Shown here piece by piece: positions 7,197 to 9,628 of a DNA stretch of 10,082 bases; the stretch's first letter is position 1; every line of letters begins with the position of its first letter. Under the pieces are notes generated by a model that saw only the letters and a list, made by a program, of their open reading frames with translations, searched no databases and was not told where the DNA came from. The DNA comes from a virus (Duplodnaviria > Heunggongvirae > Uroviricota > Caudoviricetes), in IMG/VR virus record IMGVR_UViG_2541047688_000002; one strand, written 5' to 3'. The translations under genes were made by a program, and so were the position numbers.

Positions 7197-7232
7197 TGAA
7201 GTGGTTTACTGAATTTGGCCACCTGAACAGAG
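7197..7232 (+). repeat. IS911 left terminal inverted repeat (IRL)
   Basis: Begins TGAAGTGG; pairs with the right end at 8411-8446. Confidence 0.8.
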
Positions 7233-7268
7233 GTGATATGCTCACCTCAGAACAACACAGGTGCCATA

Positions 7269-8446
<1,178 letters not shown>

Positions 8447-8663
8447 CAACGCCGTTAAGCACATAGCTAACGCAAAACAACAGGATGTAATACATCCAGT
8501 AATGAGGAAGGATTTCTGGACTATGCAGGTTTATCCATTCTTTTACGCTTACCGGCATAACAATAATCAATATGATCAGGATGATTAGCATATGAATCAA
8601 CTGTTTAAGTGTCATTCCTTGCAGGAAAAAATGCATTAGTTCCTGCCACCATGAGTTGTTCAT
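8447..8663 (-). pseudogene. 5' portion (about 72 codons) of a small membrane-protein gene, apparently truncated by the IS911 right end
   Basis: MNNSWWQELMHFFLQGMTLKQLIHMLIILIILIIVMPVSVKEWINLHSPEILPHYWMYYILLFCVSYVLNGVVKW has two hydrophobic segments. The track ORF (8292-8663) continues into IS911 only by chance. Weak RBS. Confidence 0.3.
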
Positions 8664-8806
8664 CGGCGTTTCTCTTTTGCTCTCTGTAGGGGTGAATAGA
8701 GTTTATCCGATTTCTCGTTGTAGGGGTACACGAGAACCACCGAGCCTGATGTGGTTAAAAGACAGGCACAATCTTTACTACCGCAATCCACTATTTAAGG
8801 TGATAT

Positions 8807-8893
8807 ATGGAAGAAGAATTTGAAGAGTTCGAAGAGCATCCTCAAGATGTGATGGAACAATACCAGGACTATCCGTATGACTACGACTATTGA
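8807..8893 (+). CDS. Hypothetical 28-aa highly acidic, aromatic-rich peptide
   Basis: Strong SD AAGGTG 5 nt upstream of ATG 8807. Translation MEEEFEEFEEHPQDVMEQYQDYPYDYDY. Overlaps the start of the next ORF by 17 nt. Below the ORF-track cutoff. Confidence 0.35.
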   Translation: MEEEFEEFEEHPQDVMEQYQDYPYDYDY

Positions 8894-9077
8894 TACAAAT
8901 CAATGGTGTGGACAATTCAAACGATGCAATGGATGCAAGCTGCAATCGGAATGCATGGTTAAGCCTGAAGAAATGTTTCCTGTAATGGAAGATGGGAAAT
9001 ATGTCGATAAATGGGCAATACGAACGACGGCAATGATTGCCAGAGAACTTGGTAAACAGAACAACAAAGCTGCCTGA
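8877..9077 (+). CDS. Hypothetical 66-aa Cys-rich protein (possible zinc-ribbon)
   Basis: MTTTIDTNQWCGQFKRCNGCKLQSECMVKPEEMFPVMEDGKYVDKWAIRTTAMIARELGKQNNKAA contains C-x5-C-x2-C-x5-C. The start lies inside the upstream acidic-peptide ORF, suggesting coupling. Confidence 0.45.
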   Translation: MTTTIDTNQWCGQFKRCNGCKLQSECMVKPEEMFPVMEDGKYVDKWAIRTTAMIARELGKQNNKAA

Positions 9078-9213
9078 TAGTGGCCTTTATTTTTGGCATA
9101 AATAACAGAATAAACACTGCACTGTGTATTCATTCCAACGAGTGAATACACGGAGCAATGTCGCTCGTAACTAAACAGGAGCCGACTTGTTCTGATTATT
9201 GGAAATCTTCTTT

Positions 9214-9239
9214 GCCCTCCAGTGTGAGGGCGATTTTTT
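9214..9239 (+). terminator. Intrinsic terminator / attenuator hairpin
   Basis: GCCCTC-cagtgt-GAGGGC (9214-9231) followed by GA then TTTTTT (9234-9239). Confidence 0.5.
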
Positions 9240-9259
9240 ATCTATGAGGATATGAATAG

Positions 9260-9628
9260 ATGTCAAACATCAAAAAATACATCATTGATTACGACTGGAA
9301 AGCATCAATAGAAATTGAAATTGACCATGACGTAATGACAGAGGAAAAACTTCACCAGATTAATAATTTCTGGTCAGACTCTGAATACCGACTCAATAAA
9401 CACGGCTCTGTATTAAATGCTGTATTAATCATGCTGGCGCAACATGCTCTGCTTATAGCAATTTCAAGCGACTTAAATGCATATGGTGTTGTGTGTGAGT
9501 TCGACTGGAATGATGGAAATGGTCAGGAAGGATGGCCTCCAATGGATGGTAGTGAAGGAATAAGAATTACCGATATCGATACATCAGGAATATTTGATTC
9601 AGATGATATGACTATCAAGGCCGCCTGA
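9260..9628 (+). CDS. Hypothetical 122-aa strongly acidic protein
   Basis: GAGGA 9 nt upstream of ATG 9260. About 22 Asp/Glu against about 8 Lys/Arg, with a C-terminal region rich in D/G/S (DWNDGNGQEGWPPMDGSEGIRITDIDTSGIFDSDDM). No family recognised from memory. Confidence 0.45.
   Translation: MSNIKKYIIDYDWKASIEIEIDHDVMTEEKLHQINNFWSDSEYRLNKHGSVLNAVLIMLAQHALLIAISSDLNAYGVVCEFDWNDGNGQEGWPPMDGSEGIRITDIDTSGIFDSDDMTIKAA

Follow-up and report, generated by a model that had tools for sequence, protein, structure and literature searches.

A probable sieB promoter and sas antisense RNA region in a lambdoid prophage remnant, and the hairpin-plus-module unit that it carries

The sieB/esc switch of P22 and the locus in the window

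In phage P22, translation of the sieB message is switched from SieB to Esc by the antisense RNA sas (PMC12197685, PMC7067206), Esc being a truncated form of SieB which neutralises SieB (Ranade and Poteete 1993, via PMC12197685, PMC7067206). The RNA is listed together with its sequence, as P22A-sas with a length of 127 nt, in a small-RNA sequencing study of P22 from 2026 (PMC13397905, Table 2), which disagrees with the length of 105 nt given in a review (PMC12197685). For P22, the sieB transcription start, the antisense function and the small RNA were shown by others (NC_002371.2, PMC12197685, PMC7067206, PMC13397905); the ends of sas and its origin, i.e., a promoter of its own or cutting from the pL transcript, are taken here from secondary sources. 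Moreover, the P22 genome record (NC_002371.2) annotates the start codon of sieB, the start of esc inside this gene and 24 codons further down, and the sieB promoter. As a whole, the sieB promoter and sas region of lambda- and P22-type phages is an already known element. The sieB promoter of lambda was reportedly identified by Ranade and Poteete through its homology to that of P22.

The region studied here, positions 8664–8806 of a viral DNA stretch of 10,082 nt (the window), is very likely the two-strand control region of the lambdoid superinfection-exclusion gene sieB, with the promoter PsieB on the bottom strand and sas on the top strand. Positions 8659–8785 of the plus strand align with the P22A-sas sequence (PMC13397905, Table 2), marking this stretch as a homolog of the P22 RNA. 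Phage ev017, which is identical to the window here, shows 96.1% identity to the P22 sas query over 127 nt, and the window and P22 are 95.3% identical over 170 nt. The 105-nt form of sas would end near 8763–8768 in window coordinates. The 9-mer TGTAGGGGT occurs twice exactly on the plus strand of the window, at 8685–8693 (copy 1) and 8719–8727 (copy 2), with 34 nt from start to start, and both copies are situated inside the stretch aligned to the 127-nt P22A-sas. As the original prediction had noted, this repeat pair is flanked by a minus-strand open reading frame starting at 8663 and by an acidic open reading frame of 28 codons starting at 8807. That prediction had suggested an operator pair, a structured leader RNA or a recombination site; the pair does belong to a regulatory element, but the main identity of the region had been missed, i.e., the divergent sieB promoter and start together with the main part of sas.

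On the bottom strand, the feature "sieB RNA start site" of NC_002371.2 at 29727 falls on the final base of what corresponds to copy 1, and the promoter feature of this record spans the -10 element and copy 2. By this homology, the transcription start (+1) of sieB would be at 8693 on the minus strand. With its start on this final base of copy 1, the sieB mRNA would begin with ACCCCUACA, the complement of copy 1, as its nucleotides +1 to +9. The -10 hexamer TAAACT (8700–8705, minus strand) is located inside the promoter feature of the P22 record, 6–7 nt upstream of the start when this is placed by P22 homology. A -10-like hexamer is found 5–6 nt from copy 1 in every cassette type, in the form TAAACT, TAAAAT, TAATAT, TAATCT or TAGACT, and as TAACAT in the Rac prophage. 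Copy 2 covers -26 to -34 on the minus strand and hence the -35 region, for which the candidates are TACCCC at a spacing of 17 nt or the P22-annotated TGTACC (8725–8730) at 19 nt; a consensus scan does not call PsieB, which is too weak in this region.

On the top strand, the 5′ end of sas at 8659 is located 2 nt past the sieB start codon (8661–8663, minus strand) and 68 nt short of the internal esc start codon (8589–8591, minus strand), both codons being transferred from the P22 annotation. An antisense RNA reaching beyond the sieB start and stopping short of the esc start has the geometry required for the SieB-to-Esc switch. The cis duplex of sas with the sieB mRNA comprises 35 bp with a calculated energy of -68.6 kcal/mol.

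Taken together, the mechanism proposed for an intact phage would proceed as follows. The bottom strand would be read from PsieB, with copy 2 lying over the -35 region, the -10 element at 8700–8705 and the sieB start at 8693. When pL is active, as in an infecting or induced phage, the top strand would be transcribed across the region, giving rise to the small RNA sas. This RNA would be cut from the pL transcript; we infer processing because no sigma-70-like plus-strand promoter was found just upstream of 8659 (promoter scan of 8420–9300 and reading of the sequence) and because a prophage must not make sas. The first approximately 35 nt of sas (8659–8693) are complementary over their full length to the sieB 5′ UTR and start codon and would leave the internal esc start out of reach. 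Pairing would thereby block the synthesis of SieB while Esc, the inhibitor of SieB, would still be made, which is the mechanism published for P22. The remainder of sas may act as a conserved scaffold composed of a hairpin (hairpin 2, 8712–8736) and a module of 32 nt (8737–8768). The sequence of copy 1 is also displayed at the top of hairpin 2, and the sieB mRNA may nucleate with its 5′ end on the exposed GGGG loop there. Searches for further signals were negative: the scan of 8420–9300 revealed no intrinsic terminator in 8664–8806, hairpin 2 being followed by CCACCGAG and no U tract; the boxA of a nut site, CGCTCTTA, has no match with at most one mismatch between 8600 and 8800; and the covariance models of Rfam 15 gave no match anywhere in the window at E-values of up to 1.

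The surroundings of the element in the window are those of a lambdoid early-left operon, with the plus strand running in the direction of pL. Positions 8443–9260 are 99.9–100% identical to E. coli lambdoid prophages (CFT073, 83972 and others) and to the phages ev017 and PhiR57_1, in which the genes sieB, ral and ea10 are annotated. The flanking genes in the window are sieB, orf28, ral and ea10, matching lambda and P22. Both orf28 (8807–8893, plus strand, an acidic peptide of 28 residues in the layout of lambda orf28) and ral (8877–9077, plus strand, overlapping orf28 by 17 nt as in lambda) are placed downstream in the pL direction. The gene sieB (8446–8663, minus strand), assigned by homology to intact sieB, is truncated and retains codons 1–72 only, its open reading frame continuing into an insertion sequence. 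This is an ISEc52-like element of the IS3 family at approximately 7197–8445, with transposase open reading frames on the plus strand, which is inserted in sieB after codon 72. Homology to intact sieB starts at 8443–8446, where ISEc52 begins, and an intact sieB/esc target is absent from the window. The DNA left of the insertion sequence, comprising late genes, an ompC-like porin and Q, is found at a different chromosomal locus in CFT073, and therefore the insertion sequence marks a rearrangement joining parts of two prophages. Furthermore, pL and N are absent upstream in the window. The sieB/sas element is probably an inactive remnant here, because ISEc52 cuts sieB at codon 72 and both pL and N are missing. 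A SieB search of genome contigs found a single locus only, and a scan of viral sequences anchored on Ral returned close relatives only.

Two further features are seen downstream of this region. At 9114–9169, downstream of ral, there is an inverted repeat with 22-nt arms that are 82% complementary and a 4-nt loop, directly followed by the boxA-like sequence CGCTCGTA; in HK629, HK446 and VT1-Sakai this block is joined straight to the 32-nt module, orf28 and ral being missing. At 9212–9243, just upstream of ea10, a terminator-like hairpin (8 bp, five of them G-C pairs) is followed by a T run and could be one of the terminators of the early-left operon.

Hairpin 2 and the matched copies of the motif

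Two tandem mini-hairpins had originally been proposed, each presenting the 9-mer as a loop and framed by a short inverted repeat. The inverted repeats exist, with CTCT at 8682–8685 facing AGAG at 8698–8701 and TCTCG at 8713–8717 facing CGAGA at 8731–8735. The second of them belongs to a genuine, covarying hairpin, which has to be drawn differently. Hairpin 2 (8712–8736, plus strand) has a stem of 10 bp with one bulged U, 8712–8722 pairing with 8727–8736, and a GGGG tetraloop at 8723–8726. The UGUA of copy 2 pairs with UACA, and the loop consists of GGGG only; the 9-mer TGTAGGGGT is half upper stem and half loop and not a loop motif. Folded alone, 8710–8738 reaches an energy of -9.9 kcal/mol (z = -2.94), and one of 200 shuffles was as good.

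Comparison with relatives supports hairpin 2 well. In an alignment of 35 two-copy cassettes, 92.6% of the cells can pair and five of the ten base pairs change on both sides; this covariation was exceeded by none of 500 shuffles, and controls with a slid register came nowhere near it. A covariance model built from the cassette sequences gave 88 matches in 100 sources, one of them being the window itself (8706–8770, plus strand). In the alignment produced by this model all ten pairs of hairpin 2 show double changes, an alignment that leans toward the structure because it was fitted to the model. Moreover, cells with G.U outnumber those with A.C by 81 to 28 over the whole stem and by 64 to 1 at the four inner pairs. 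This excess favours an RNA that is read on the plus strand.

The first hairpin did not stand up. The CTCT/AGAG structure has an energy of -4.7 kcal/mol (z = -0.6), the minimum-energy fold pairs these bases otherwise, and just 64–67% of the cells pair; in the register first drawn it stays at the level of the shuffle and slid controls, and an alternative register is marginal against them. It was rejected as a structure. A long-range pairing suggested by RNAalifold, GGGGU of copy 1 with ACC(A)CC, was set aside as well, being nearly invariant, with its sole covarying pair better explained by the register of hairpin 2. Likewise, the fold of the whole RNA (8659–8785) is as stable as its shuffles on either strand (z = -0.7 and -0.35). 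Of the structured leader RNA put forward in the original prediction, one covarying hairpin on the plus-strand RNA running into orf28 and ral remains.

The pattern of base pairing also bears on the proposal that the two 9-mers are direct-repeat sites in DNA for a protein regulating PsieB, as a pair of operator or activator sites. Their position is suggestive, one covering -26 to -34 and the other +1 to +9 of a promoter whose -35 element is poor, and the copies are matched in three lineages, as expected if one protein reads both. However, the palindrome at copy 2 keeps G.U and rarely A.C (in the numbers given above), which points to RNA and not to a pair of DNA half-sites. In addition, no candidate regulator tracks the type of motif: one and the same motif is found with N or immunity regions of the lambda, P22 and phi21 types and with varied cargo genes, and in phages of Escherichia, Salmonella, Klebsiella and Hafnia. 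Positive evidence for an operator pair was not obtained, and we consider such protein sites improbable.

Regarding chance, the 9-mer repeat alone is unexceptional. The window contains five exact 9-mer direct repeats spaced 10–40 nt apart against approximately 1.6 expected, a number that 11 of 200 shuffles reach, and with at most one mismatch the motif occurs three times against 1.5 expected. The repeat pair is to be regarded as a real feature because of its conservation in other sequences: both copies, 32–35 nt apart, are present in lambda, in P22, in Rac and in 45 distinct cassettes.

These cassettes were gathered from phage records, IMG/VR and metagenomes by anchoring on the conserved right-hand sequence. 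Those with two exactly repeated copies at a spacing of 32–35 nt, 45 distinct ones in all, fall into three motif types: CTGTAGGGGT in lambda, P22, HK629 and phages of Hafnia and Klebsiella; TGTTGGGGA in Salmonella F1055, Klebsiella Kp4884-1 and others; and TTTGACTGTGGAA as the third. A fourth type was not added by the metagenome scan. In all 45 cassettes both copies are of one type, and the DNA between the copies is homologous across the three types. Therefore the arrangement has one origin and the copies changed in concert. The match between the copies is probably under selection, judging from this pattern of sequence change. Part of the concerted change is explained by pairing within hairpin 2, because positions 4 and 9 of the motif form a pair over the GGGG loop, in which A4/U9 became U4/A9. 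Copy 1, which is without such a 3′ partner strand, made the same changes as copy 2. Where the copies match imperfectly outside Rac, the difference is mostly a C in copy 1 against a T in copy 2, a kind of change that would preserve G.U pairing of the mRNA 5′ end with hairpin 2. Among the differences between the copies in the core, six would be compatible with such pairing and three would not, a non-significant bias, which is only suggestive of pairing between the two. In K-12 Rac the copies read TGTAAGGGT and TGTAGGGGT and are 35 nt apart.

The concerted change has to be weighed against a neutral origin, in which the repeat is the relic of a short duplication of the 5′ arm and loop of the hairpin and was kept alike by ancestry or gene conversion. 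The 17-mers TTGCTCTCTGTAGGGGT and TTTCTCGTTGTAGGGGT are 82% alike, as after a duplication, cassettes with one copy and a single hairpin are common, and an exact 9-mer repeat at such a distance is not rare by chance. Nevertheless, three diverged lineages keep the copies matched while flanks and spacer have diverged, and repeats in direct orientation at a distance of 34 nt tend to be deleted and not homogenised, so that a neutral relic appears to be a poor explanation.

A recombination site, also raised originally, is highly improbable. When phages are compared, their homology ends precisely at the left border of copy 1 (lambda versus P22 and the window) and also at the right border of the 32-nt module, as might be seen at a site-specific recombination or mosaic-junction site. 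However, homologous recombination inside a strongly conserved block is expected to leave such junctions at its borders, no recombinase is encoded nearby, and the repeats do not have the inverted-repeat architecture of a core-type site; nothing in the data supports this function.

Next to the antisense pairing published for P22, the matched copies might be explained by a second contact between the two RNAs. It is quite possible, although short of probable, that the sieB mRNA is recognised at its 5′ end by the top of hairpin 2 and that this accounts for the duplication of the 9-mer, much as in the antisense system of IS10. Nucleotides +1 to +9 of the sieB mRNA (ACCCCUACA) are complementary to 8719–8727 on hairpin 2, and the first 37 nt of the mRNA can pair at a second place, along the 5′ strand of the hairpin, with -27.6 kcal/mol, a value matched by 13 of 500 shuffles. 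This 5′ strand carries UUUCUC, matching the Shine-Dalgarno region of sieB. Docking of the mRNA 5′ end on the loop would explain why both copies change together across the phage lineages. Against it stand the number of independent motif lineages, three only, and the change from A4/U9 to U4/A9, which is explained by intra-hairpin pairing as well. Moreover, copy 1 is already perfectly and contiguously complementary to the mRNA and a second site is not obviously needed.

A variation of the copy 1 region is observed in three IMG/VR contigs (L113, L118 and L168). In place of copy 1 they have ATAAGGGGGT as the 3′ arm of a hairpin (CCCCCT...AGGGGG), and the leftward mRNA would thus begin with a 5′ stem-loop.

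The 32-nt module and the genes facing pL

Directly after hairpin 2 follows the 32-nt module CCACCGAGCCTGATGTGGTTAAAAGACAGGCA (8737–8768, plus strand), which hardly varies among the phage and metagenome contigs that carry it, well over 100 in number, and occurs also without the 9-mer repeat. Its first 10 nt are identical in 158 of 165 copies. An internal stem formed by GCCUG (8744–8748) and CAGGC (8763–8767) pairs in 99.8% of the cells of the model-fitted alignment, and the module of Rac has a compensatory GCCCGG/CCGGGC stem. In the form without the repeat, the module is always preceded by a single hairpin with a variable stem, for which 51 different combinations of arms were counted; ahead of the module, 73% of 114 variants have a stem of 6 bp or more, compared to 19% of shuffles. 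Two IMG/VR contigs (L139 and L174) carry two hairpin-plus-module units each, approximately 0.8–1 kb apart, one of them a two-copy and the other a single-hairpin unit, which means that several counter-oriented genes can be so equipped in one phage.

The start of a counter-oriented gene always adjoins the hairpin-plus-module unit, with CAT and the anti-Shine-Dalgarno sequence TCCTT in register. These genes belong to more than 30 unrelated families and mostly encode proteins of 55–200 residues. Where only a single hairpin is present, the bottom-strand sequence is TGGTAT(N)CT, preceded at 16 nt by TTnACC, and this corresponds to an extended -10 promoter (TGGTATNCT), which the scan calls in one case (L188). 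The two-copy form lacks this -10 element and yet conserves the module; therefore the module must have some further role.

The association with counter-oriented genes also helps to judge the possibility that hairpin and module act in cis on the pL transcript, i.e., in its processing, stability or Rho-dependent termination (a tL1-like zone) or as a leader of orf28 and ral, the duplicated 9-mer being incidental. This would agree with the occurrence of hairpin and module without sieB, ahead of many different downstream sequences, with the stable P22 small RNA ending shortly past the module (PMC13397905), with the C/U-rich and G-poor stretch at 8668–8685 ahead of the hairpin, and with the SfV record, which labels the equivalent hairpin as a putative terminator. 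On the other hand, a U tract after the hairpin is missing and the terminator scan was negative here, the unit always abuts the start of the counter-oriented gene in the register described above, which indicates a relation with that gene, and the P22 genetics assign an antisense function to the RNA (PMC12197685, PMC7067206). A purely cis-acting signal is unlikely, albeit the least unlikely of the readings that compete with the antisense RNA.

Returning to the antisense function, the matched 9-mers might constitute a specificity code, the top of hairpin 2 recognising the 5′ end of the counter-oriented mRNA, within a portable and uncatalogued cassette of promoter and antisense scaffold serving more than 30 unrelated genes. 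We regard this combined proposal as tentative and on the doubtful side. If the specificity code is true, the antisense RNA of each lineage would act only on its own kind of target, and the portable cassette, if true, would equip genes that are expressed from prophages and lie in reverse orientation within lambdoid early-left operons. Of 5426 complete E. coli genomes, 1044 contain the 97-nt core, and among the 30 records listed there is no annotated feature beneath it. Rfam holds no family for sas or the hairpin-plus-module unit. A literature search with the literal sequence resulted in a sole match, the P22 small-RNA study (PMC13397905), and neither the matching of the motif copies nor the portable unit of hairpin and module was found described in the accessible literature. 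Both rest on few independent lineages and deserve a look.

As a summary, the window itself matters little, being the known sieB/sas region in a disabled state. The comparative picture is more useful: sas is without an Rfam family, and the unit precedes dozens of unrelated small genes facing pL. If the unit generally silences prophage-expressed genes at the onset of lytic growth, it would mark accessory or defence genes and would offer a simple sequence handle to find them.

Comparison with known systems

The closest described system is the sas RNA of P22 with its sieB/esc switch. The locus in the window shares 96% identity over the 127-nt RNA, the position between sieB and ral, and the antisense orientation to the sieB 5′ UTR and start codon that stops short of the esc start. 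It differs in that the copy in the window belongs to an E. coli prophage remnant in which sieB is cut after codon 72 and pL and N are absent, and therefore the switch cannot operate in the window.

A more distant relative is found in the Rac prophage of K-12, where a diverged whole cassette is situated upstream of sieB b1353 (L224, 3563–3660), including hairpin 2 and the compensatory stem of the module. This cassette is unannotated in K-12. The RNA KilS (b4833) of Rac was considered as an identity for the cassette and rejected, since it is a separate RNA which starts within the kilR leader, approximately 60 nt past the module. A KilS-like sequence, ATTGCTGTGTGTAGTC, follows the module in several other phages.

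In the antisense system of IS10, the 5′ end of RNA-IN docks on the loop of RNA-OUT. Similarly, the sieB mRNA is complementary at its 5′ end to the uppermost part of a stable antisense-RNA hairpin, and the antisense RNA covers the ribosome-binding site. There is no relation in sequence, and the likeness to IS10 is a mechanistic analogy and not membership. Furthermore, the complementary sequence is present twice at the sieB locus, once contiguous and once on a separate hairpin.

Finally, lambda carries in its orf28–sieB gap (34,380–34,480) both copies of the motif at 34 nt, the -10 element TAAACT and hairpin 2, and has the 32-nt module, orf28 and ral in common with the window almost base for base. 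It diverges fully to the left of copy 1, i.e., in the 5′ UTR and the N-terminus of sieB, where the window is of the P22/ev017 type.
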